DNA of 64,000 nucleotides from an uncultured bacterium (lineage in GTDB: Bacteria > Krumholzibacteriota > Krumholzibacteriia > LZORAL124-64-63). Where the stretch lies: NCBI GenBank assembly GCA_963727525.1, contig CAVSGO010000006.1:160001-224000 (forward strand), given 5' to 3'. The translations under genes were made by a program, and so were the position numbers. Below the pieces are notes generated by a model. The model had not been told where the DNA came from. It saw only the letters and a list, made by a program, of their open reading frames with translations, and did no database searches. This document shows, in pieces, positions 21,816-36,561 of this stretch (positions within the stretch are counted from its first letter, which is position 1; every line of letters starts with the position of its first letter).

Positions 21816-22472
21816 CTACGTCGCCGCGGCGGCATCCTGCTCGGAGAAGTAGCTGGCGAACTGGTCGGCCAGCGCGAGGCGGGCGGCCGCCAGGGCCGTC
21901 GCGGCCGTTTCGAATTCGCTTCGACGCAGCGACTCCGCGAGGCCATGCCAGGTCTCGAGCCAGCCACCGGCGTCCCAGCCGCGATCAACGGCCGCGCTGA
22001 TGTAGCGCAAAGTGAGCCGGTTCTGGCGCAGGGCGAGGGTGCGCAGGGTGAGGTTGCGGCAGCCGTCGAGCGTGATGCGCGTGAGCAGGTAGAACGTTTC
22101 CACGAGACCATCGCGGTCGGTGCGGCCGAGGCGGGCGCGGGAGAGCAGATTCTGCAGTTCCATCACCGCGCGGCCGTCGAGCGGGTCGCGATCGCGCAGT
22201 GCGGCGGGCTCGATGACGGCGAGCACGCGGCAGAGTTCGTTGATCTCGCGCGCGGTGAGCGGCGGTACCTGGAAACCTCGGCCCATGAACGACAGCAACA
22301 CGCCCTCGGCCTGCAGGCCGAGCATGGCCTCGCGCAGGGGGGTGCGGCTGATACCCAGGTCCTGCGACACGCGCGACTCATTCAGGTGCATGCCCGCCGG
22401 CAGGCGACCGTCGACGATGCGCGCGAGGATCTCGGCGCCGACGTCCGTTCGCAGGGGTTTGCGCTCAAACAT
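21816..22472 (-). CDS. GntR family transcriptional regulator (FCD-like C-terminus)
   Basis: HTH LNESRVSQDLGISRTPLREAM. Confidence 0.88.
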   Translation of the reverse strand: MFERKPLRTDVGAEILARIVDGRLPAGMHLNESRVSQDLGISRTPLREAMLGLQAEGVLLSFMGRGFQVPPLTAREINELCRVLAVIEPAALRDRDPLDGRAVMELQNLLSRARLGRTDRDGLVETFYLLTRITLDGCRNLTLRTLALRQNRLTLRYISAAVDRGWDAGGWLETWHGLAESLRRSEFETAATALAAARLALADQFASYFSEQDAAAAT

Positions 22473-22505
22473 GCCACGTCCTTGCCGGGGCGTCGGCGAC
22501 GCGCC

Positions 22506-22814
22506 TCAGACCCGCACGACCGAGTTCTCGGCACCCTCGAAGCCACTGGGGCAGTACCGATCAGCACCGTCGTCGTTCTGCCAGGTCTTGCCGTCGAGGA
22601 GGTAGCGGTACTGGTACTCGCGTCCCACCTCGAGGTCGAGCGTCACCTTGAATTCGCCGCTCTTCAGCTTCTCCAGCGGTGTGGCGCGGGGGTTCCAGTC
22701 GTTGAACTCGCCGACGAGGCTGACCTTCCCGGCCCCGAGGGCCAGATCCTTGGGCAGCCGGAACGTCACCTTGCACACCGGCTTGCTCTTGAGAGGTTTC
22801 TTGATGACGCTCAT
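22506..22814 (-). CDS. Isoamylase early-set / CBM48 glycogen-binding domain protein
   Basis: CKVTFRLP, VSLVGEFNDW, YQYRYLLDG..WQND..AD; start MSVIKK after GGAGG. Confidence 0.88.
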   Translation of the reverse strand: MSVIKKPLKSKPVCKVTFRLPKDLALGAGKVSLVGEFNDWNPRATPLEKLKSGEFKVTLDLEVGREYQYRYLLDGKTWQNDDGADRYCPSGFEGAENSVVRV

Positions 22815-22901
22815 GGACGAATCCTCCGTATAAAGACCCTCGATCTCATCTTTGGGCGCAAGATAGAGCCGATCCGGTCCAGGCGTCAAATCACGTCTCC
22901 G

Positions 22902-24218
22902 TCAATTCGCCGTGCCCAGTTCCAGCATGTACCCCGCCACCGCCTTGAGCTTCTCGTCGCCGAGCTTGAAGGCGGGCATCTGCGGAAAGCCCGCCCGCTT
23001 CTTGCCGGGGCTGCTCGCCCAGGTCACGATGCCGTCGGGATTGTCGGCATAGATCTTCGCAATCTCGCGCAGCGACGGGCCCACGAGCACACGGTCGGTC
23101 GTATGGCATGCCGCGCAGGTGCCCTGGAAGATCTTCTGGCCCAGGGGCACCTTCACGAGCGTCTGGCCCGTGGCTTCGCGCCACTGCGCGGCCGCCACTT
23201 GCCAGCCCAAGTCGCGCGTGTGGGCCGCGACGAGACGACGATGCTCGTTCAGCGCGTTCTCCCGGTAGACGTGGCGGCCGTAGCCCATGGCGAAGGCCGT
23301 GAGCGTGAGGAGTGTGAAGACGAGCACGCCGCGCGGCAGGGCTCGCGCGGCAGGCCGCGTCACCTCCCGCCACATCGTCACCGTGGCCACGATGGCCAGC
23401 GTCACGCCCACGCTGATGATCCCGATGAGGTACCAGCTCACGCCCTGGGCCGGCAGCGTCAACAACAACAACGGCCCGAACACCACCTGCATTGCCGTGG
23501 CGCCCAGGGTGATGCCATAGAAGAGGCGGCGCAGCGCGCGGCGATCGAGCTCCTGGAAGCGCGTCTCCACGTGGTAGCTGTCGCGCAGGAAGAACACGAG
23601 CAGAAAGAGTCCGGCGATCGCCACGCTCGCCGTGAGGAAGTGGAAGTATCGTGGCCACACGTTGGGCAGGGCCAGCGCGGAGACGAAGCCGTGGACCTCG
23701 GACCAGCGGCCAGGGAACAGCATCAGGTTGATGTTGGCCAGGAAGATGAGCGGGATGGCCAGGAACATCGCCGCGCCGGCCATGCCTATCGCGATGTGCA
23801 GGCCCTTGGCGTCGGCGAGCCTGTCCCATGTGTACTTGTGGATGTACGTCACCAGGAAGGCCACCGTCACGAGCGGGATGATCGCGATCCACGCCGCCCC
23901 GGTGAGCGCGTTGGCCGAATAGAAGTACACCGTGTACACCAGGTTGAGGGCCAGTAGCGGCCCCACGCCCAGCACCACGGCCAGGCTCTTGTTCACGGTC
24001 ACGGTGCCGGCGATCTCCCTCGCGAGCACGTCGAAATCACGACGCCGGCGGCCGAGCAGCTCGAACACCACCGTGAGCAGCGAGCCGCCCACCATGAGGT
24101 TCACGAAGAGGATGTGCCACAGGAAGAGCAGCACGAGCAGCGTGTTGACGACCACGGAGTCCGCCGGCAGCGGCAGCGGAATGTCGCGCGGCAGGGGCCA
24201 GTTGGCGATCGAGTCCAT
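22902..24218 (-). CDS. CydA-like polytopic membrane protein fused to C-terminal monoheme cytochrome c
   Basis: LWHILFVNLMVGG (CydA helix-1 like), PRYFHF; heme motif CAACH (23103-23117); distal Met in FPQMP. Confidence 0.78.
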   Translation of the reverse strand: MDSIANWPLPRDIPLPLPADSVVVNTLLVLLFLWHILFVNLMVGGSLLTVVFELLGRRRRDFDVLAREIAGTVTVNKSLAVVLGVGPLLALNLVYTVYFYSANALTGAAWIAIIPLVTVAFLVTYIHKYTWDRLADAKGLHIAIGMAGAAMFLAIPLIFLANINLMLFPGRWSEVHGFVSALALPNVWPRYFHFLTASVAIAGLFLLVFFLRDSYHVETRFQELDRRALRRLFYGITLGATAMQVVFGPLLLLTLPAQGVSWYLIGIISVGVTLAIVATVTMWREVTRPAARALPRGVLVFTLLTLTAFAMGYGRHVYRENALNEHRRLVAAHTRDLGWQVAAAQWREATGQTLVKVPLGQKIFQGTCAACHTTDRVLVGPSLREIAKIYADNPDGIVTWASSPGKKRAGFPQMPAFKLGDEKLKAVAGYMLELGTAN

Positions 24219-24236: not shown

Positions 24237-25613
24237 TCAGCGTCCGAAGCCGGCCGTCTGCACCCCGTCCAGGGGAGCGGGGTCGGCACGCAGCGAGATG
24301 ATGTAGTCGGCGAGCGCGGACTTCTCCTCCGCGGTGCCCGGCACCGGCGGCATGAAGGGGCGCGCGTTCTGGATGCCATCGAGATAGGTGACCAGGGCGG
24401 CGTGGTCCCAGCCTTGCCAGCCGTACATCGCGCCGAACTTCTGCACGATACTGTTCACGCCGTGAGTGGTGTGGCAGCGGCTGCACGCGAGGCGGAACAT
24501 CTCGCGGCCGGCCATGAGTGTATTGTCGTCGGTGACGTCGTGCACCACGGCGTAGGAGGCGTGGGCCAGCAGGCCGTCTTCCGCGTAGAGCGGGTAGTCC
24601 TGGGCGCGCAGCCCGTTGCTGTACATGTAGGCCTGGACGACCTCGGGCTTGCGGATGAACTCGCGCACGCGCTCGAAGTAGCTGAGCTGCCACACCGCGA
24701 AAAGCACCGGCACGATCATCGCCACAGCAGGCAGGCGGCGTGGCGCCAGCAAACCCCACACGGCGACCAGCACGACCACGCCCACCGAGACCGCGATGAC
24801 GACGCGTAGCGGATCGTAGAGCTGCTGGAAGTTCAACGTCGTAAGGGCCACGGGGAGGTTGGCGTGCATGCGTTCGGGGATGACCTTCCAGTACGACCAC
24901 GCGCCCACCAGCCACGCCGGGCTGAAGGCCAGGGCCCAACCGCTGATCGCGCGCACGGCGCGACCGCGGAACTCACTGCCGCGCTCGGTGAAGAGCACCG
25001 TCAGGAAGAGGGCGAACATGGCGGCCGTCACCAGAGCCAGTGGTGTGCGGAAGAAGAGCTGCGGTAGGTAGACGGGGTTGAGCGCCGCGGTCCAGAAGCC
25101 TGGATTCACCGTCCACACGCCGGTGTCCATCTGGAAGCTGAGGATGGCCACGATCACGGCCATGGTCAGCCAGGAGGCGACGCTCAGCGCCACGCCCAGC
25201 CCGAGGTGCGCCTTCTTGTGCGCCTTCGCCCACATCGTCTTCCACGACAGCATGTAGATCAGGATGAGGGCCACCTCGGTCACGAAGACCGTCCACTCGA
25301 AGAACCACGCCCAGAAAAAGACGCGGATCAGGGAGCCTATGGCGTTGGGGTTCACGAGGCTGGTCGACAGCCAGATGCCCACGCCCGTGAGCGCGCCCAG
25401 GCTGGTGGTGACGATGAACGCCACGAACAGGATGCGATACGCCAGGCGGTCCCACTGCTCGTCGCGAGTGCGGATGCCCAGCCACTCCAGATACGTCACC
25501 AGCGGCGCCAGCCCCACGGCCAGCATGTGGTTGATGATCACGTGGAGGGAGGCGATCACCGCGATCAGCAGGCGGTTGCCGAAGAAGTCGAGGTGAAAGA
25601 CCGGGAAATCCAT
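24237..25613 (-). CDS. Cytochrome bd oxidase subunit I-like protein fused to cytochrome c
   Basis: LHVIINHMLAVG, LGALTGVGIW, FFEWTVFVTE (CydA E99/E107-like), ERVREFIRKP; heme motif CSRCH (24471-24485) and RPFMP. Start 25613 follows an RBS (ORF extends to 25637). Confidence 0.8.
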   Translation of the reverse strand: MDFPVFHLDFFGNRLLIAVIASLHVIINHMLAVGLAPLVTYLEWLGIRTRDEQWDRLAYRILFVAFIVTTSLGALTGVGIWLSTSLVNPNAIGSLIRVFFWAWFFEWTVFVTEVALILIYMLSWKTMWAKAHKKAHLGLGVALSVASWLTMAVIVAILSFQMDTGVWTVNPGFWTAALNPVYLPQLFFRTPLALVTAAMFALFLTVLFTERGSEFRGRAVRAISGWALAFSPAWLVGAWSYWKVIPERMHANLPVALTTLNFQQLYDPLRVVIAVSVGVVVLVAVWGLLAPRRLPAVAMIVPVLFAVWQLSYFERVREFIRKPEVVQAYMYSNGLRAQDYPLYAEDGLLAHASYAVVHDVTDDNTLMAGREMFRLACSRCHTTHGVNSIVQKFGAMYGWQGWDHAALVTYLDGIQNARPFMPPVPGTAEEKSALADYIISLRADPAPLDGVQTAGFGR

Positions 25614-25917
25614 GACGGGCATCCTCTTCGGTTGCATGCGCGGGCCAGGTGCGCGCGGCGGGGGCCTTCACGCCGCGTTCCTCGCATATCCGCGTGGCCC
25701 ACGCCGGAAACCCCACCGGAATCGTGTGAGTTAAGTCTTTCTCGAAGAAGAAGTTACGCGACGCGGCATGGTAATGGCAAGGCGGGACACACGCCAGCAC
25801 GCGATAGCCTGGAACACACCGGGGTGGCGTCCGTAAGGACCGGGTTCGATCTTGGGTACGACGCGTAGCGCCGACCGTCCCGGCCGGCGCGCCTTCCCAC
25901 GATGGAGGTCGTTTTCG

Positions 25918-27105
25918 ATGCGCAAGTTCTCCCTCACGTTCCTCGTCGGCCTGGTCGCGGTCCTGGCACTCGCGGCCGGAACGGCGCACGCCCTGCCGGC
26001 GGCGCCGATCATCGCCCAGAGCTGGGACGAGGCGGTGGCGTTGTCTCAGCAGCACGGTTCGCCGATCGTCATCGACTTCTATACCGACTGGTGACCGAGC
26101 TGCAAGGTCTTCGCCCGTGAGGTGGAGGAGAATCAGCAGCTTCGCGGCTATCTGGCCGGGATCGTGCTCTTCAAGAACAACTGCGAGAAGGGTGCGGGCA
26201 TCGATGTCGCCAAGAAATACGAAGTGCACGTATACCCGACCTTCGCCATGGTCGACGCCAGCGGCGAGGTGACCGATCGCTGGGCCGGCTACCAGGGCGC
26301 CGACGGCTTCATCGCCACCGTGGACGCGGCCCAGGCCGACCCCCGGACGATCAAGGAGAAGGTGGCGGCGTTCGACGAGGAACCGACGGTGGCGCTGTCG
26401 CGCTCGCTGGGACAGTACAGCGAGGCGGTGGGTGCGAACACCGACGCCATCAAGTACTACCGCAAGGCGATGGTCCTTGACTCAACGCTCGCCAAGGAGA
26501 TGCGCAGCCAGGTCTTCATGGCCGCGTTCTATGGGTTGCGTTCGGGTGAGGTGACGGGCGATCAGCTCATGGCCGTGGGCCACGAGATCATGGATGCGCC
26601 CGGGAGCGATGCGAACGACTATCTCATGGTCGCCAGTATCGCCAAGCGCGTGGCGTCGGCCAACGACTACGTGCCGATCCTGCAGAAGGCCCTGACCGCC
26701 ACGGCGAATTCCGACGATCCGGAGATGGCGGAGTACCGGCAGGATCTCCTCGTCGACGAGGCTCTCCTGATCAAGAACGACAAGGACGAGGCCCTGCGTC
26801 TCAAGCGGGATACGCTCACCGACACGTGGCGCAACGATCCCGATGAGATCAACAGCTTCGCCTGGTGGTGCTACGAGAACGACCTCAACCTGACCGAGGC
26901 CTACGACCTCGCCATGCGCGGCGCCGATCTGGCCGCCGACGACGGCACCCGGGCCAACATCCTCGACACGGCGGCCTACATCGCCTTCAAGAAGGGCGAC
27001 CAGGCCAAGGCTATCGAGCTGGAGACACGCGCCGTGAAGTTGGCTCCCGATCGCCAGGGTCTGCAGCGCACGCTGGAGAAGTTCAAGAGCGGGGAGGCCG
27101 GCTGA
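25918..27105 (+). CDS. Putative exported selenoprotein: thioredoxin fold (UxxC) plus TPR-like domain, Sec at TGA 26092-26094
   Basis: RBS GGAGGT 25904-25909; signal peptide ending AHA. IVIDFYTDW-TGA-PSCK is in frame with ORF 26122..27105; cis-Pro loop YPTF; TPR-like C-terminus (NSFAW, NILDTAA). Confidence 0.88.
26108..26128 (+). promoter_or_regulatory. Candidate bacterial SECIS element
   Basis: TCTTCG(C)CC-GTGA-GGTGGAGG stem-loop; the apical loop starts with G 23 nt after the UGA. Confidence 0.65.
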
Positions 27106-27130
27106 GACTTCCCGAGACGCCCGTATCGAT

Positions 27131-27172
27131 GCAAGCGGCCGTGGATCTCTGGATCCGCGGCCGCTTGCTTTT
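27131..27172 (+). terminator. Intrinsic terminator after the selenoprotein gene
   Basis: 17-bp stem GCAAGCGGCCGTGGATC / GATCCGCGGCCGCTTGC (one G-U), 4-nt loop, then TTTT. Confidence 0.8.
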
Positions 27173-27182
27173 CGTCGCGGTC

Positions 27183-27226
27183 TTGCGGGACGTCGCCGTT
27201 TCGTGTACCGTACCAACCGGTAGGTA
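27183..27226 (+). promoter_or_regulatory. Putative promoter and TetR operator
   Basis: TTGCGG-N17-TACCGT, then near-palindrome TACCAACCGGTAGGTA (27211-27226) overlapping the TetR start codon. Confidence 0.65.
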
Positions 27227-27876
27227 TGGAAATGCAGGTACAGCGAACACAACACGAATCCAAGCGCAAGCTCCTCGACGCCGCCCTCCGCGTGATCCGT
27301 ACGAAGGGCTACGAGGCGGCGACGGTGGAGGATATCTGCCGGGAGGCGGGGCTGACGAAGGGCAGCTTCTTTCACCATTTCAAGGGGAAGGAAGACCTGG
27401 CCGTGGCGGCGGCGGAGTACTTCGCCACCATGGCCGACGGGCTCTTCGCCGACGCGCCGTACCGGCATCTCGAGGATCCGGTCGAGAGGGTGCTCGGGTA
27501 TGTCGATTTCCGCCGCGCGATCCTGCGCGGTGCGTTGCCCGAGTTCACGTGTCTGCTGGGGACGATGGTCCAGGAGACGTACGCGACCCACCCGGCCATC
27601 CGCGAGGCCTGCGACACGCACATCAGCGCGCACGCGGCCGACGTCGCCCGCGATCTCGCGGCGGCACAGGCGCGCGTGCCTTCTTCCCGGGCGAGCTGGA
27701 ACCCGGAGGATCTCGGCCTCTTCACGCAGGCCGTGATCCAGGGCGCCTTCGTGCTCGCCAAGGCCCGGGGCGGCCCCGAGGTCGCCGACGCGTGCCTCGC
27801 GCACCTGCGGCGGTATCTCGAGCTGCTCCTCGATCGCCCATTCCCAGCCGCGAAGGACGACGACCATGACGGATAG
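27226..27876 (+). CDS. TetR family regulator (NemR/LmrA-like)
   Basis: HTH ATVEDICREAGLTKGSFFHHFKGKEDL; CLLGTMVQE. Confidence 0.92.
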   Translation: MEMQVQRTQHESKRKLLDAALRVIRTKGYEAATVEDICREAGLTKGSFFHHFKGKEDLAVAAAEYFATMADGLFADAPYRHLEDPVERVLGYVDFRRAILRGALPEFTCLLGTMVQETYATHPAIREACDTHISAHAADVARDLAAAQARVPSSRASWNPEDLGLFTQAVIQGAFVLAKARGGPEVADACLAHLRRYLELLLDRPFPAAKDDDHDG

Positions 27877-28642
27877 ACAGCACCCCTTTTGCTGGTACGA
27901 GCTGACCACGCCGGACGCCACGGCGGCCGCGCGATTCTACGGCGACGTGTTCGGGTGGACGGCGCGCGATGCCGGCAACCCCGCGATGCCATACACCCTG
28001 CTCGCCTCCGGAGGTCGCGACATCGGCGGCATCTATCAGTTCCCGGACGATCCGAGCTGCGCCGGCATGAAGCCGGGCTGGCTCGGCTACATCGCCGGCG
28101 ATGTCGAGACCGACGTACCGCGCGTGCAAGCGGCGGGCGGCACGGTGCACAAGGCGTGCACGGACATTCCCGGCGTAGGCCGCTTCGCGATCGTCGGCGA
28201 TCCGCACGGCGCGGCGTTCGTGATCTTCACGCCTGACCCGATGCCGGGCGACATGCCCGAACCCGTGCCGGCCACCACGCCGGGCCACGTGGGCTGGCAC
28301 GAGTTGCACGCCGGCAACGGCCTCGAGGCCTGGGAGTTCTACTCGGGGCTCTTCGGCTGGACGGGACGGGACGGGCTCGATATGGGACCAGCCGGCGTCT
28401 ACCGGATCTTCGCGATCGACGGCGTGGACCGGGGCGGCGTGATGACGAAGATGCCGGAGATGCCCGCGCCGAGCTGGCTCTACTACGTCACTGTGGCGGG
28501 CATCGACGCGGCGATCGCTCGCGTGAGGGCTGCCGGCGGCACGATCATCAACGGACCGCACCAGGTTCCCGACGGCCCATGGATCGCCCAGGGTGCGGAT
28601 CCTCTGGGTGGGATGTTCGCGATGATGTCGGAAGCCCGCTGA
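27866..28642 (+). CDS. Two-domain VOC family protein
   Basis: FCWYELTTPD..FYGDVFGW and VGWHELH..FYSGLFGW repeats; DPHGA/DPLGG. Confidence 0.9.
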   Translation: MTDRQHPFCWYELTTPDATAAARFYGDVFGWTARDAGNPAMPYTLLASGGRDIGGIYQFPDDPSCAGMKPGWLGYIAGDVETDVPRVQAAGGTVHKACTDIPGVGRFAIVGDPHGAAFVIFTPDPMPGDMPEPVPATTPGHVGWHELHAGNGLEAWEFYSGLFGWTGRDGLDMGPAGVYRIFAIDGVDRGGVMTKMPEMPAPSWLYYVTVAGIDAAIARVRAAGGTIINGPHQVPDGPWIAQGADPLGGMFAMMSEAR

Positions 28643-29639
28643 ACGCGCGGTGCCCCTCGCGGCGGGGCGCCCCCGTGGCGCCCCGCCGCCGATAAGTGCC
28701 CGGAGCGACGCCGAGGTAGCGCTTGAAGACCTTGCTGAAGCTCGCCTCGGCGCGATAGCCGACGCGGTCGGCGACCTGGGCGAGCGTGAGGTGTCCCTCG
28801 CGTAGGTGGTTCGCCGCCACCTGCATCCGCCACCGCGTGAGGTACTGCAAGGGCGACTCGCCCACGAGCCCGCGGAATCGCGATGCAAACGCCGAACGCG
28901 ACATGCCCACCCGAGCGGCGAGCGACTGCACCGTCCAGGCATCGTCGGCGTGCGCATGCATCAAGCCGAGCGCCTCGCCGATCAACGGGTCGCGCAGACC
29001 GGCCAGCCAGCTCGGGCCAGTGTACGCCAGTTCCTCGATGGTGGTCTGCAGCACCTGGATGAACAGGGCCTCGGTGAGCCGATCGAAGAGGGCGCCGCGT
29101 CCCGGACGCCCCGCGATGGTCTCCTGGGCGATGAGGTCGAGCGACGATTCCAGCCACGATCGCGCCCGGCCACCCTCGCCCCGGATCGATAGCACCGGCG
29201 GCAACACCGACAACAGGGGATGGGCGGAGCCGTGGTCGAAGCTGAAAAAACCGCAGATCAGGTCGGCCTGCGCCCCGTCGCCGCCGATGCGCAGCGGCGC
29301 ATGGACCGGGTCCCGCTCGCCCTCGGGCACATGGGCGAGCAGCTCCTGCAGAGGCACGGCCGGTGTGGCCGGTCCGTCGGCGACCACGTGGGCGTCGCCA
29401 TGGGGGAGTACCACGATGTCCCCGGCCGACAGGGCCATCGCGTCGAACCCGCCCGCCACCGACGGGCGCAACCAGCAACTCCCCGCGCGGATGACGTGGA
29501 ACTGTGCCGCGTCGCTGGCCGGCACCTCCAGGCCCCAGGGTGCGCGCAGCTCCGAGCGGAAGTACAGGCTGCCGCCCAGATGCACCGATTCGAGGATGCT
29601 GGTCAGGGCATCGTGGCTTGCCTGTGGACGATCGGACAT
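28548..29639 (-). CDS. AraC family regulator with cupin_6 domain
   Basis: DALTSILESVHL, FHVIRAGSCWL, WTVQSLAARVGMSRSAFASRF, VGYRAEASFSKVFKR; start MSDRPQ. Confidence 0.9.
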   Translation of the reverse strand: MSDRPQASHDALTSILESVHLGGSLYFRSELRAPWGLEVPASDAAQFHVIRAGSCWLRPSVAGGFDAMALSAGDIVVLPHGDAHVVADGPATPAVPLQELLAHVPEGERDPVHAPLRIGGDGAQADLICGFFSFDHGSAHPLLSVLPPVLSIRGEGGRARSWLESSLDLIAQETIAGRPGRGALFDRLTEALFIQVLQTTIEELAYTGPSWLAGLRDPLIGEALGLMHAHADDAWTVQSLAARVGMSRSAFASRFRGLVGESPLQYLTRWRMQVAANHLREGHLTLAQVADRVGYRAEASFSKVFKRYLGVAPGTYRRRGATGAPRREGHRAFSGLPTSSRTSHPEDPHPGRSMGRREPGAVR

Positions 29640-29735
29640 GAATTCTGCATGAATCGTCATAGCTGCTCCAGTTCCTGGTCCTACCATAACGGCATGATCG
29701 CTGACCAACCAGCCCACATCGGAAAAGAGGAAACC

Positions 29736-30641
29736 ATGAGCATAGTCGTCACCACCCCCACGGGGAACATCGGATCGGTTGTGACCAGCACGTTGCTGGA
29801 TCGAGGCGCCAAGCCCGTGCTGATCGCGCGCGATCCTTCCAAGCTCGAGGACGCCGCCCGCCGCGGCGCGACCGTGAAGCAGGGCAGCCACGCCGACGCC
29901 GGGTTCCTGGTGGAGGCCACGCAGGGTGCGGTCGCTCTGTTCGTCGTCACCCCGCCCGACATGCAGGTGCAGGACATCAACGGTCACTACCGGCGCTTCG
30001 CCGAGGCCGCGGCGCGGGCCGCGCACGAGAACGGGATCGGGCATGTGGTCCACCTGTCCAGCGTGGGCGCCGAGCTCGCGAGCGGCAATGGCCCGGTGGC
30101 CGGTCTGCACCTGGCCGAGACCATTCTCGACGGCGCGGGGATTCCGAACCTGACGCACCTGCGGCCGGTCTACTTCATGGAGAACACGCTTGGTCAGATT
30201 CCCGGCCTGATCCAGACGGGCAACCTGTTCACCACGTTCCCGGCCGGTATGCGATTCCCGATGATCGCCACCCGCGACATCGGTGTACGCGCCGCCTCCC
30301 TGCTGCACGACCGCGTCTGGTCCGGTCACCGGATCCAGGAGCTGCACGGCGCCGAGGAGACGGGCTACGAGGAGGTCGCCAGCATTCTGAGCGACGTGCT
30401 GGGACGCGACATCAATCATGTCACCGTGTCCGGCGAGCAGTTCGTGCAGGCGCTCACCGGCATGGGCATGAGCAAGGTCATGGCCGACGCGCTGGCCGAG
30501 CTGAGCGGGGCCCTCGCGTCCGGCAAGATCAAGCCCCAGGAGCCGCGCAATGCCGCGAACACCACGCCGACGACCTACCGCAGCTTTGCCGCCACCGTGT
30601 TCAAGCCGGCGTACGAGGCGGCGCAGGTGGCGGCGCGGTAG
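29736..30641 (+). CDS. NmrA-like NAD(P)-binding protein
   Basis: TTPTGNIG, VVHLSSVGA, LRPVYFMEN, MIATRDIG; divergent from AraC. Confidence 0.9.
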   Translation: MSIVVTTPTGNIGSVVTSTLLDRGAKPVLIARDPSKLEDAARRGATVKQGSHADAGFLVEATQGAVALFVVTPPDMQVQDINGHYRRFAEAAARAAHENGIGHVVHLSSVGAELASGNGPVAGLHLAETILDGAGIPNLTHLRPVYFMENTLGQIPGLIQTGNLFTTFPAGMRFPMIATRDIGVRAASLLHDRVWSGHRIQELHGAEETGYEEVASILSDVLGRDINHVTVSGEQFVQALTGMGMSKVMADALAELSGALASGKIKPQEPRNAANTTPTTYRSFAATVFKPAYEAAQVAAR

Positions 30642-33996: not shown

Positions 33997-36561
33997 ATGT
34001 CTTCGCGCTTTGTCGCCATTTGCCTCGCTGTCACCCTTGGTTTACCCATTGTTTCCCTGGCGGCCGACGACGCGGTTGTCGCGCTCGACGCGCTCGTCAT
34101 CGGGCCGTTCCCGGCGGCGCCGGCTCTGGTGGCCACGCCCCACGTGCCGGGCGATCAGGAACTCGTGCCCGAGATCGATCCCACGGGGTGGATGCCGGAG
34201 GAAGGCGACAAGGTGCCGGCGGCGCCGGGCCACGAGCTGACGTGGCGCAAGGTGGGCGCAGCTGATGGTGGCTTCGCGCTTCCCGATTCGGGCGTGTACT
34301 GGTTAGCGGCACGGCTGCAGAGCGATCGCTGGTCGGAGGTGACGCTGAAGGCCGACGGTGGTTGCGCCATCTACGCCGACGGTACCAAGGTCGCGGCCAA
34401 CGTGCCGGGAGAACCGGGCGATGACGTGGAGGGCGACGTCGGTGCCGGCACCGGGGCGCGCTTCGTGTTCGTGCGGGCGTCGGCTGGCAAGGATGGCGGC
34501 CACGTGACCCTGAGTGCCACCGGCGACGCGACGCTGAGCTGGACGCTCGACGCGCAGCTCGGCCTCAGCGGGATCGACCGGGCGCGCCGGATTGCGATGA
34601 TCGGCAACCTGGCCGTGTCGCCCAAGGGAGCGCTCGTGGCCAGGCGGCTGTCGCGTCGGAAGCCGACCGGCGAGGGCTGGCAGCGCGACGTGTCGGTCTT
34701 CGCCAGCGACGGCGGCCTGGTGGCCAGCGATCTCGGCGGAGCGGGTGCGCGGCCCGAGGCCTTCTCGCCCGACGGGCGCCAGCTCCTGTTGCGCCGCAGC
34801 GACGGCGGCAACACCGATCTCGTGCTCTGGACGGCGCCGCTCGGACCGGTGCGCACCGTCGTCGAGGACGAACCCGGCCTGGGTATCGTGCGTTTCTCAC
34901 CGGACGGGCACTGGCTGCTTATCGCGTCGACGCGCGGTTTCGACGCGAAGTCCGTCGCCGAGGATCAGGCGCATCGCTGGGACACGCTGGGTCAACGTCT
35001 CACTGACTGGGACCCGCTCACGCATCTGCACCTCGTGAACGTGGCCACAGGCGCGCGCCGGGTGCTCACCCAGCCCGGCGACTGGACGCTCGACGGCGCG
35101 GCGTGGCTGCCCGACGGCAAGGCGATCATCTACGGGCGCACGCAGCCGCAACCGGAGCGGCCGTGGTTCACGTCGGAGATTCACCGCATCGACCTCGCCA
35201 CCGGCGACGACACCGTCGTCGCCACCTTCACCGGTGGCTGGGAGGTGCGGCCGCAGGCGTTCGCGCCGCATCCCGACGGCCGGCGCGTGGCCTTCCTCGG
35301 TCCGCCCGAGGCGGTGGGCGATGGGCACACCGAGCACAACGTCTACGACAAGCAGGTGTGGATGCTCGACCTTGCGACCGGCAAGACCGAGCGCGCCACG
35401 TACGGGTTGCGTGATACCTTCGCCGGTGGCGGCGGTCTGCCCGCGTGGGAGCCGCGGGGCCGCTGGCTCGTGGTCCCGGCCACGGCCGGTTCACGGGACG
35501 TGCTCGTCCAGCTCGAACCCGACGGCGCGCATTGGAAAGCAACAGAGGTGGCAACCGAGGGCGTGACCGGCGAGGGATGGGCCCTCAGCCCCGACGCCGT
35601 GGCCGTGGCGTACACCGCGAGCGGCCTCGCGCAACCGCCGTCCCTCTGCCTGCAGACGCTCGGCGGCCGTGCGCGGGTGATCGAGGCGCCCAATGCCGCC
35701 CTGACGCAACGCTGGCGCCTGGCCGCGACGTCCGACGCGTCGTTCACCGGGCCAGGCGGCGAGACCATCGAGGCCTGGTGGTACCGCCCGAGCACGGCAG
35801 CGGCCGGCGTCTTCGACCAGCCGGCGCAGGGGAACGCCGGCAGCGTGCCGCTCATCGTCTATTACTACGGCGGTGCTTCACCCACCATCCGCGGTTTCAA
35901 TCCCACGCACCAGTTCTGGGCGGCCAACGGCTACGCGGTGCTCGTGATCAACCCGCGCGGCGCGTTCGGCTACGGAGACGCATTCGCCGACGCGCACGCC
36001 GGCGATTGGGGTACCGAGGCCGGCGCCGACATCGTGGCCGGTACCGAGGCTCTGCTCGCGCGCTTCCCGCAACTCGACCGCAAGGCCGTGGGCTGCTACG
36101 GCGGCAGCTACGGCGGCTTCATGACGATGTACCTGGTGAGCCACAGCGACCTCTTCGCTGCAGCCGTCGCCATGTACGGCATCGCCGACCTCGTCACCTA
36201 CTGGGGGCAGGGCGCCTGGGGCATCACCTACGGTGACATGGCGCTCGGCGGCCGCACGCCGTGGGGCGATGCCTCGTACTTCACGCAGCACTCGCCGGTG
36301 TACGCGGCCGACCGCATCCACACGCCGCTGCTGATGCTGCACGGCGCGAGCGATACGAACGTGACTCCGGGCAACTCCGAGGAGATGTTCGCCGCTCTGA
36401 AGGTGCTCGGCCGCGACGTGGACATGGTGACGTTCCCCGGCGAGAACCATGGCATCGCCGGTACGTGGGCCGACTATACGGGCCATCGCACGATGATGCT
36501 CGAGTTCTTCGACCGCTGGCTGAAGCAGCAGCCGCAGGCGTGGGAACATCGCTGGAAGTGA
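33997..36561 (+). CDS. S9 (prolyl oligopeptidase/acylaminoacyl peptidase) family secreted peptidase
   Basis: Signal peptide; beta-propeller repeats; GGSYGG, HGASDTNV, GENHG. Confidence 0.92.
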   Translation: MSSRFVAICLAVTLGLPIVSLAADDAVVALDALVIGPFPAAPALVATPHVPGDQELVPEIDPTGWMPEEGDKVPAAPGHELTWRKVGAADGGFALPDSGVYWLAARLQSDRWSEVTLKADGGCAIYADGTKVAANVPGEPGDDVEGDVGAGTGARFVFVRASAGKDGGHVTLSATGDATLSWTLDAQLGLSGIDRARRIAMIGNLAVSPKGALVARRLSRRKPTGEGWQRDVSVFASDGGLVASDLGGAGARPEAFSPDGRQLLLRRSDGGNTDLVLWTAPLGPVRTVVEDEPGLGIVRFSPDGHWLLIASTRGFDAKSVAEDQAHRWDTLGQRLTDWDPLTHLHLVNVATGARRVLTQPGDWTLDGAAWLPDGKAIIYGRTQPQPERPWFTSEIHRIDLATGDDTVVATFTGGWEVRPQAFAPHPDGRRVAFLGPPEAVGDGHTEHNVYDKQVWMLDLATGKTERATYGLRDTFAGGGGLPAWEPRGRWLVVPATAGSRDVLVQLEPDGAHWKATEVATEGVTGEGWALSPDAVAVAYTASGLAQPPSLCLQTLGGRARVIEAPNAALTQRWRLAATSDASFTGPGGETIEAWWYRPSTAAAGVFDQPAQGNAGSVPLIVYYYGGASPTIRGFNPTHQFWAANGYAVLVINPRGAFGYGDAFADAHAGDWGTEAGADIVAGTEALLARFPQLDRKAVGCYGGSYGGFMTMYLVSHSDLFAAAVAMYGIADLVTYWGQGAWGITYGDMALGGRTPWGDASYFTQHSPVYAADRIHTPLLMLHGASDTNVTPGNSEEMFAALKVLGRDVDMVTFPGENHGIAGTWADYTGHRTMMLEFFDRWLKQQPQAWEHRWK

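Follow-up and report, generated by a model that had tools for sequence, protein, structure and literature searches.

The window analysed here, 64,000 nucleotides of DNA from an uncultured bacterium of the Krumholzibacteriota, contains at 25918-27105 on the forward strand a gene that automated callers split at an in-frame TGA. The first-pass annotation of this stretch had proposed a hidden exported selenoprotein at this locus, and on re-reading the sequence we found its coordinates, frame, motif and residue numbers to be correct throughout. The open reading frame (ORF) that ends in ...IVIDFYTDW at TGA 26092-26094 and the ORF at 26122..27105 lie in one common frame, and the codons joining them read TGA CCG AGC TGC AAG GTC TTC GCC CGT GAG. 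This TGA is the sole internal stop between 25918 and 27105. Translation through it yields the predicted product of 395 residues with selenocysteine (Sec, U) at residue 59, within DFYTDW-U-P-S-C-K, where the TGA occupies the first Cys of the thioredoxin W-C-x-x-C motif. We conclude that the locus very probably encodes a single exported selenoprotein combining a thioredoxin (Trx) domain with tetratricopeptide repeats (TPR), with UGA59 recoded by means of a selenocysteine insertion sequence (SECIS). The selenoprotein reading is strongly supported by sequence comparison, and a periplasmic reductase is the job that we infer for the product. Sequences matching the ribosome-binding site, signal peptide and cis-Pro loop named in the first pass are all present and are listed with the other features in Table 1.

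Table 1. Features of the predicted selenoprotein gene, in window coordinates, with the basis for each.
Feature	Position	Strand	Detail and basis
Shine-Dalgarno-like GGAGG	25904..25908	+	10 nt 5' of the ATG at 25918; sequence read directly
Predicted complete selenoprotein coding sequence	25918..27105	+	395 codons plus terminal TGA stop; single internal UGA = Sec; full-length orthologues and Cys forms exist
Predicted Sec-pathway-type signal peptide, residues 1-25, AHA|L	25918..25992	+	By eye and crude hydropathy script
Thioredoxin-fold domain, residues 31-140, DsbD-gamma/DsbH/Thioredoxin_7-like	26008..26337	+	Pfam, PDB profile search, VIA-align
Predicted selenocysteine codon UGA (residue 59), opening the U-P-S-C redox motif at 26092-26103	26092..26094	+	Alignment to TGA/TGC/TGT of relatives; Cys in P0003 and P0059
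Predicted bacterial SECIS (bSECIS) hairpin: 5' arm UCUUCGCC 26108-26115, apical loop CGUGA 26116-26120, 3' arm GGUGGAGG 26121-26128	26108..26128	+	Folding, covariation, codon bias at the loop
Y-P-T-F cis-Pro loop, residues 106-109	26233..26244	+	P107 invariant; translation and family alignment
All-helical TPR superhelix, 13 helices, residues 145-391	26350..27090	+	AlphaFold2 model, Foldseek, VIA-align
Invariant W316-W317-C318	26863-26871	+	Family alignment
Terminal TGA, true stop	27103..27105	+	Sequence
Intrinsic terminator, 17-bp stem, 12 GC pairs, T-run	27131..27173	+	Computed; 26 nt after the stop

At the protein level, a single fold extends across the TGA. The Pfam Thioredoxin model (PF00085) matches residues 33-135 of the read-through product (E = 6e-12, 45.8 bits against a cut-off of 23.5), and an AlphaFold2 (AF2) model built on a 55-sequence read-through alignment (predicted local distance difference test, pLDDT, 94.1; predicted template modelling score, pTM, 0.86) comprises a low-confidence N-terminal helix at 7-20, a Trx fold of beta-alpha-beta topology at 31-140 and helices at 145-391. 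The fold, the cis-Pro loop and the position of the CxxC-type motif, at the start of helix alpha-1, together place the domain in the thioredoxin superfamily. The TPR-like helices anticipated in the first pass appear in the model as a superhelix of tandem helix-turn-helix units, about 8 repeats, as in TPR proteins; individual Pfam TPR models all scored under their cut-offs. Columns invariant in the family alignment fall in both domains and include F54, U/C59, C62, F65, P107, N312, W316, W317, C318, D350 and T351. The N-terminus, MRKFSLTFLVGLVAVLALAAGTAHA|LP, has the expected basic start, hydrophobic core and A-x-A site by eye and by the hydropathy script, and 52 of the 55 aligned family members likewise have a basic N-terminus ahead of a strongly hydrophobic stretch of 10 residues; by the same kind of heuristic, some members carry a lipobox-like L-x-G/A-C.

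Existing gene calls instead imply two genes, namely one for an exported peptide of 58 residues that stops at the TGA and one for a separate TPR protein starting at GTG 26122 or later, and the length of most database homologues (290-340 aa) agrees with such a division. However, the Trx fold bridges the TGA in both the Pfam match and the AF2 model, and the 27 nt from the TGA to the GTG encode the conserved xxCK-F-A-R. The starts chosen by the callers are spread across profile positions 59-108, so that no start is conserved, and 76 of the best 150 cluster representatives described below are full length with an active site. We therefore regard two separate genes as highly improbable.

We next consider how the in-frame UGA is distributed among relatives. 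A protein search returned 61 relatives, most of them 290-340 aa long and starting just past the motif (e.g. MFARE...), along with two full-length Cys relatives, P0003 (DWCSSCK) and P0059 (DWCGPCK); homologues with Cys and with TGA at residue 59 thus both exist. When 41 genomes from the same family and class were searched in six frames, 22 of them yielded a total of 23 near-full-length matches (E<=1e-49), of which 20 had an in-frame TGA and 3 had none. Parsing the active site at 108 related loci drawn from three search sets (23 + 5 + 80) assigned TGA to 86 and TGC or TGT to 8, leaving 14 that the stricter pattern did not parse; a TGA that recurs at one column this often is well beyond coincidence. 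Within these 14, looser patterns revealed a TGA in L014, L015, L022, L027, L037, L138 and L166, the N-terminus is cut at a contig end in L147 and L185, L154 looks frameshifted, and parsing assigned no codon at L024, L026, L122 and L193. The 86 TGA loci, some of which are duplicates of one contig, reduce to 80 distinct 54-nt sequences, and close relatives weigh too heavily in the ratio of TGA to Cys, because the fetched loci were the best matches to the query.

A census of 1.84 billion cluster representatives recovered 717 at E<=1e-30. Among the best 150 of these 717, the 76 full-length members comprise 74 with CxxC, one with SxxC and one with AxxC, and the other 74 start downstream, which is the outcome expected of gene callers at a TGA, with DNA checked for the fetched loci only. 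P0091 (SxxC, EWSSDC) and P0113 (AxxC, TWAPTC) are full-length natural variants without the attacking residue. The relatives that bear names include Candidatus Krumholzibacteriia metagenome-assembled genomes (MAGs) at 59% and about 40% identity and a Zixibacteria MAG with the Cys form. In homologues the UGA aligns to Cys or UGA with conserved coding on both sides, as in a selenoprotein gene.

These data bear directly on the possibility that a Cys codon was mutated or mis-sequenced to TGA, leaving a dead gene or an artefactual split. TGA is one base away from TGC and TGT, and the assembly may hold indel errors, as selB (below) suggests. Yet independent assemblies supply 80 distinct sequences with the TGA at one and the same column, which excludes sequencing error; the protein is conserved on both sides of it, and a covarying hairpin is tied to it. 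A search for sequencing runs listed two of DNA (shares 0.20 and 0.09) and none of RNA; the DNA runs provided short contigs only, and one contig of run X1, which may be the source sample, spans 26069-26219 including the TGA with 0 differences. The chance of a pseudogene or sequencing error is, in our judgment, negligible.

In a quick maximum-likelihood (ML) tree, Cys forms are interspersed among Sec forms at no fewer than 3 and, parsimoniously, at most 5 separate positions; since the tree is unrooted, it does not show the direction of Sec/Cys change. P0003, a Cys form, falls within the 100%-supported clade of the window's own gene and retains F-A-R-A. SelA was also found in the Cys-orthologue genomes G029 and G039, and loss of the machinery therefore does not explain the Cys forms. 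Separately, a sub-clade (P0021, P0027, P0040-P0042, P0046-P0048 and L123) carries an extra C-terminal chalcone-isomerase-like domain (PF16036/PF16035), for a length of about 505-583 aa, and L123 in this group has the TGA. The genome searches also returned weaker thioredoxin-like matches with an in-frame TGA (G004:C32:20522-20812, G030:C9:2514-2837, G009:C2:255786-256130, G037:C1:1407188-1407466, G040:C200:3483-3974, G025:C61:53228-53653 and G040:C155:4729-5319), one of which carries three in-frame TGA codons; these loci may be additional Trx-fold selenoproteins of the class.

A covarying hairpin downstream of the UGA provides evidence at the RNA level. Every TGA locus has a hairpin starting 17 nt past the U of the UGA; in the window its 8-bp stem and 5-nt loop fold with -8.9 kcal/mol, and the spacing from UGA to loop is 21 nt. 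Across the 80 distinct sequences, 91.6% of the 640 cells in hairpin columns 17-24/30-37 are paired, whereas sliding the 3' partners by 1-3 columns leaves 35-53% paired. Compensatory double changes occur in 6 of the 8 pairs (32 cells), with pair 24/30 switching from C-G to U-A in 8 sequences and pair 18/36 from G-C to C-G or U-A in 14. None of 500 shuffles matched the observed pairing, covariation score or compensated-pair count, a control that ignores relatedness among the sequences, whereas the slid-partner control accounts for it. A set of 21 sequences gave the same covariation picture, and RNAalifold independently predicted a 6-bp core. The hairpin is evident only by comparison, as single-sequence minimum free energy (MFE) folding of the 69-nt stretch was not significant (z = -1.09) and an Rfam scan of 25700-27300 returned sub-threshold chance matches only. 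The bSECIS model describes a loop of 3-9 nt on a stem of 4-16 bp, with G then G/U at the loop start, 16-37 nt between UGA and loop and an MFE <= -7.5 (PMC13188914, section 5). The hairpin, with G then U at loop positions 2-3, agrees with this consensus.

Codon usage at the loop carries the same signature. The Arg codon there is CGT in 70 of the 80 sequences, CGG in 7 and replaced by GGT (Gly) in 3, so that CGT makes up 70 of 77 Arg codons; among 1350 Arg codons elsewhere in the same genes, CGT accounts for 9.5% and CGC for 50%, and CGC is found at the loop in 0 of 80. Full pairing of the 6-bp core is seen in 74 of 80 Sec forms but in 1 of 8 Cys forms; at the peptide level, all eight Cys forms read F-x-[KRDQN]-x and none reads F-A-R-[EA]. 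We attribute the unusual invariance of the hairpin sequence across the family to its overlap with the F-A-R-[EA] codons of helix alpha-1. The locus thereby offers a clean natural case of overlapping RNA and protein constraint, in which the SECIS fixes both the F-A-R-[EA] peptide and a rare CGU, both relaxed in Cys forms, and which is useful for training selenoprotein and SECIS finders.

The genome (4.66 Mb in 8 contigs, 96.7% complete) encodes machinery for selenocysteine insertion, including selA (389 bits), selD (365 bits), one copy of tRNA-Sec(UCA) and selB (302 bits against a cut-off of 242). The selD gene encodes a selenoprotein itself, with an in-frame TGA (FAKSAG-U-AAK; contig C8:225636-226547, minus strand; locus L003) followed at about 20 nt by a CCAGG-GGA-CCUGG hairpin whose loop is G-first and whose spacing is almost that of the Trx-TPR gene. 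TGA is the commonest stop of long open frames, ending 2037 of 3393, and it also ends the Trx-TPR gene. The genome therefore does not use a TGA-sense code, and the earlier description of TGA as an ordinary stop was accurate.

Several points weigh against the selenoprotein and export readings. The signal-peptide calls come from heuristics only; the shuffle control has the limit given above; and, most seriously, selB reads in three frames in this assembly (contig C5, about 675691-677611, minus strand; locus L197). A first frame covers the GTPase to half of wing-2, a second a middle piece, and a third wing-3 and the stop, which amounts to two apparent single-base shifts in the same direction between SelB-wing_2 and wing_3. 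The first frame continues into the downstream GcpE/ispG gene, whereas selB in five relatives gives a continuous 1-578 match. The search for selA, selB, selC and selD thus found selA, selD and tRNA-Sec intact and a selB that exceeds its cut-off but is frameshifted as assembled. If the shifts are real, the strain could not decode UGA, which would terminate translation or be read by a near-cognate tRNA, and the Trx-TPR gene would be a recent relic. However, selA, tRNA-Sec and the TGA-containing selD are intact, the Trx-TPR gene and its SECIS are without decay, and both shifts have the same direction and are confined to some 240 nt that are very rich in GC, a pattern consistent with assembly indels. 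That a broken selB leaves the UGA undecoded as Sec in this strain is, in our view, improbable.

Taking the gene as a functional selenoprotein gene, its expression would proceed as follows. The ribosome would meet UGA at codon 59, and the hairpin, 14 nt beyond the UGA, would recruit SelB and Sec-tRNA(Sec) through its CGUGA loop, placing selenocysteine where termination would otherwise occur. Translation would then run on to the true stop at 27103, followed by the terminator, and the signal peptide would export the product. In the periplasm, Sec59 would act as the attacking nucleophile and Cys62 as the resolving residue, DsbD or CcdA could re-reduce the protein, and the TPR arm may hold an unfolded or peptide client, so that the whole would resemble a Sec-dependent version, placed in the periplasm, of the Trx-TPR 'chaperedoxin' CnoX/YbbN.

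Structural comparisons point to a reductant-type Trx domain. Profile search of the PDB with this domain matched 2kuc (6.6e-24) and the DsbD C-terminal domain (2e-17); Foldseek matched DsbD-gamma with a TMt of 0.64, and VIA-align placed DsbH 2ju5 at Z 14.7, with a root-mean-square deviation (rmsd) of 2.2 A over 111 aligned residues. This likeness is at the level of the domain, as the NCBIfam models for DsbD (NF001419, 49.4 bits against 330) and DsbH (NF043050, 19.4 against 190) scored well below their family thresholds, no NCBIfam family model reached its cut-off for the read-through protein, and a protein-cluster search with a Cys-form homologue hit only generic 'thioredoxin family protein' clusters. 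The helical part resembles the 8-repeat CTPR 9qhc (TMq 0.43, TMt 0.58 in Foldseek), and residues 270-394, the last three repeats, resemble peptide-binding TPR modules of the PP5/STI-1 type in VIA-align (Z about 13, near chance level for helical repeats). The only solved protein matching both domains is YbbN/CnoX (E. coli 3qou, Foldseek E 1.4e-6 over 353 columns; Salmonella 3qdn).

The genome contains DsbD_TM proteins (DsbD-type membrane reductases); neither DsbB nor VKOR was found, a negative limited to this single, nearly complete draft. Taken with the DsbD-gamma/DsbH-like fold, these results speak for a reductase, and we infer a periplasmic thiol-disulfide reductase with a TPR client-binding arm. 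The same selenoprotein might have a different job, either as a disulfide-forming oxidase or isomerase or as a binder or reductase of metals and metalloids (Se, Hg, As, Cu). In favour of such a role, selenoproteins that handle metals can have UxxC motifs too (PMC13188914, Table 1; SAO system, bioRxiv 10.1101/2022.07.06.499078), the reductase-type G-P dipeptide is present in 7 of 8 Cys forms and never in Sec forms, and the TPR domain has an invariant extra Cys318. On the other side, the nearest structures are of reductant type, no DsbB or VKOR was found that would re-oxidise an oxidase, and the gene context is without metal-resistance genes. We judge another job to be unlikely, though far less so than the alternatives to the selenoprotein itself.

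Beyond the reductase reading, we tentatively propose that this gene is the founding member of a large and so far uncatalogued family, the exported Trx-TPR selenoproteins of Krumholzibacteriota-like and neighbouring lineages. Its members might serve as selenium-dependent periplasmic 'chaperedoxins', in which a TPR groove (N312, W316, W317, C318, D350, T351) would hold unfolded or apo-cytochrome clients and Sec59 would reduce or protect their cysteines. We consider this proposal possible but somewhat doubtful; if it is true, redox homeostasis of the envelope would gain a branch that depends on selenium. The two-domain match to YbbN is poor (TMq 0.23, rmsd 21 A), and the gene neighbourhood is kept only among close relatives, both of which, with the draft status of the genome in which DsbB and VKOR were sought, count against the functional assignments.

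No conserved redox partner was found in the gene neighbourhood. Divergent from the selenoprotein gene lies a 466-aa polytopic membrane protein (24237-25637, minus strand) that ends in a mono-haem cytochrome c domain (CSRCH; PF13442) and that no NCBIfam model matches. A protein 50-72% identical to it occupies the same position only in the close relatives L035, L115-L118, L120, L121 and L123, and in another clade an amidohydrolase is found upstream in 22 loci. This cytochrome is a possible client, for which its adjacency is weak evidence because it is limited to close relatives. Farther upstream, a 670-aa ORF (21945-23957, plus strand) has no Pfam or NCBIfam match, and parts of it are 47-58% identical to sequences upstream of the locus in close relatives. 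Downstream are a TetR regulator (27226-27876, plus), a Cupin_6+AraC regulator (28548-30419, minus) and an NmrA-like NAD(P)-binding protein (29220-30641, plus). The last two candidate ORFs lie on opposite strands and largely overlap, so that the start of one or both is probably misassigned. ARAGORN also called a tRNA-Ala(CGC) at 35227-35319 (plus strand), which at 93 nt is long for a tRNA-Ala.

Comparison with described selenoproteins divides what is familiar here from what appears to be new. Table 1 of a review lists 119 prokaryotic selenoprotein families, none with TPR (PMC13188914, section 7), and the terms TPR, tetratricopeptide, periplasm and signal peptide have 0 occurrences in that paper. 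TPR was likewise not found in the portions consulted of PMC2398784 and bioRxiv 10.1101/2022.07.06.499078, and 'tetratricopeptide' was not found in the prokaryotic selenoproteome papers searched, whose survey supplements may list members under 'Trx-like'. A literature search returned no paper joining selenocysteine or UGA with TPR in a periplasmic thioredoxin and no relevant paper on selenocysteine in Krumholzibacteri. The first-pass annotation held that exported Trx-TPR selenoproteins were not among the well-characterised families, and the part of this claim concerning the Trx-TPR architecture stands against the 119-family catalogue. Export in itself has precedents, as selenoproteins with signal peptides or lipoprotein signals are described for the SAO system (bioRxiv 10.1101/2022.07.06.499078). 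Trx-fold UxxC selenoproteins are moreover a classic class (PMC13188914, Table 1), as the first pass had said of the motif, and it appears that only the Trx-TPR architecture is uncatalogued.

The gene adds to that catalogue the combination of signal peptide, Sec-Trx and TPR, and would show a poorly studied candidate phylum using Sec in the cell envelope. It also corrects a systematic mis-annotation, as most close homologues in the databases searched appear under the label "TPR repeat" or hypothetical protein, with lengths of 290-340 aa and without their catalytic domain.

Among known systems, the closest in active site are the bacterial Trx-fold UxxC selenoproteins (PF00085; 'thiol:disulfide interchange protein' PF13098; 'thiol-disulfide isomerase-like'; PMC13188914 Table 1), which also have a thioredoxin fold with Sec replacing the N-terminal Cys of the CxxC motif, a bSECIS within the coding region immediately downstream, and Sec and Cys forms side by side in one family; the protein here differs by its signal peptide and by the TPR superhelix of about 250 residues that forms its C-terminal part. 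Its RNA element shares with the E. coli fdhF-type or consensus bSECIS (Zhang and Gladyshev model, per PMC13188914) a stem-loop just after the UGA, a small apical loop with G[U/G] and the 16-37 nt spacing, but is short, with a 6-8 bp stem and without a conserved lower stem. For the Trx domain, the best matches in sequence and structure are DsbD-gamma, Chlamydia DsbH and the Bacteroides 'putative disulphide isomerase' 2kuc (Thioredoxin_7 class), all of them periplasmic and reducing; unlike the protein here, each is either a lone domain of the Cys type or a part of DsbD, without TPR and without Sec. In domain order, the counterparts are E. coli YbbN/CnoX (3qou) and its Salmonella equivalent (3qdn), in which an N-terminal Trx domain likewise precedes the TPR. 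E. coli CnoX has a non-canonical SxxC motif. CnoX is cytoplasmic, shorter (about 284 aa) and without Sec, its domains are arranged differently and its identity to the protein here is 17-18%, and the signal peptide of the Trx-TPR protein argues for a compartment other than that of CnoX.

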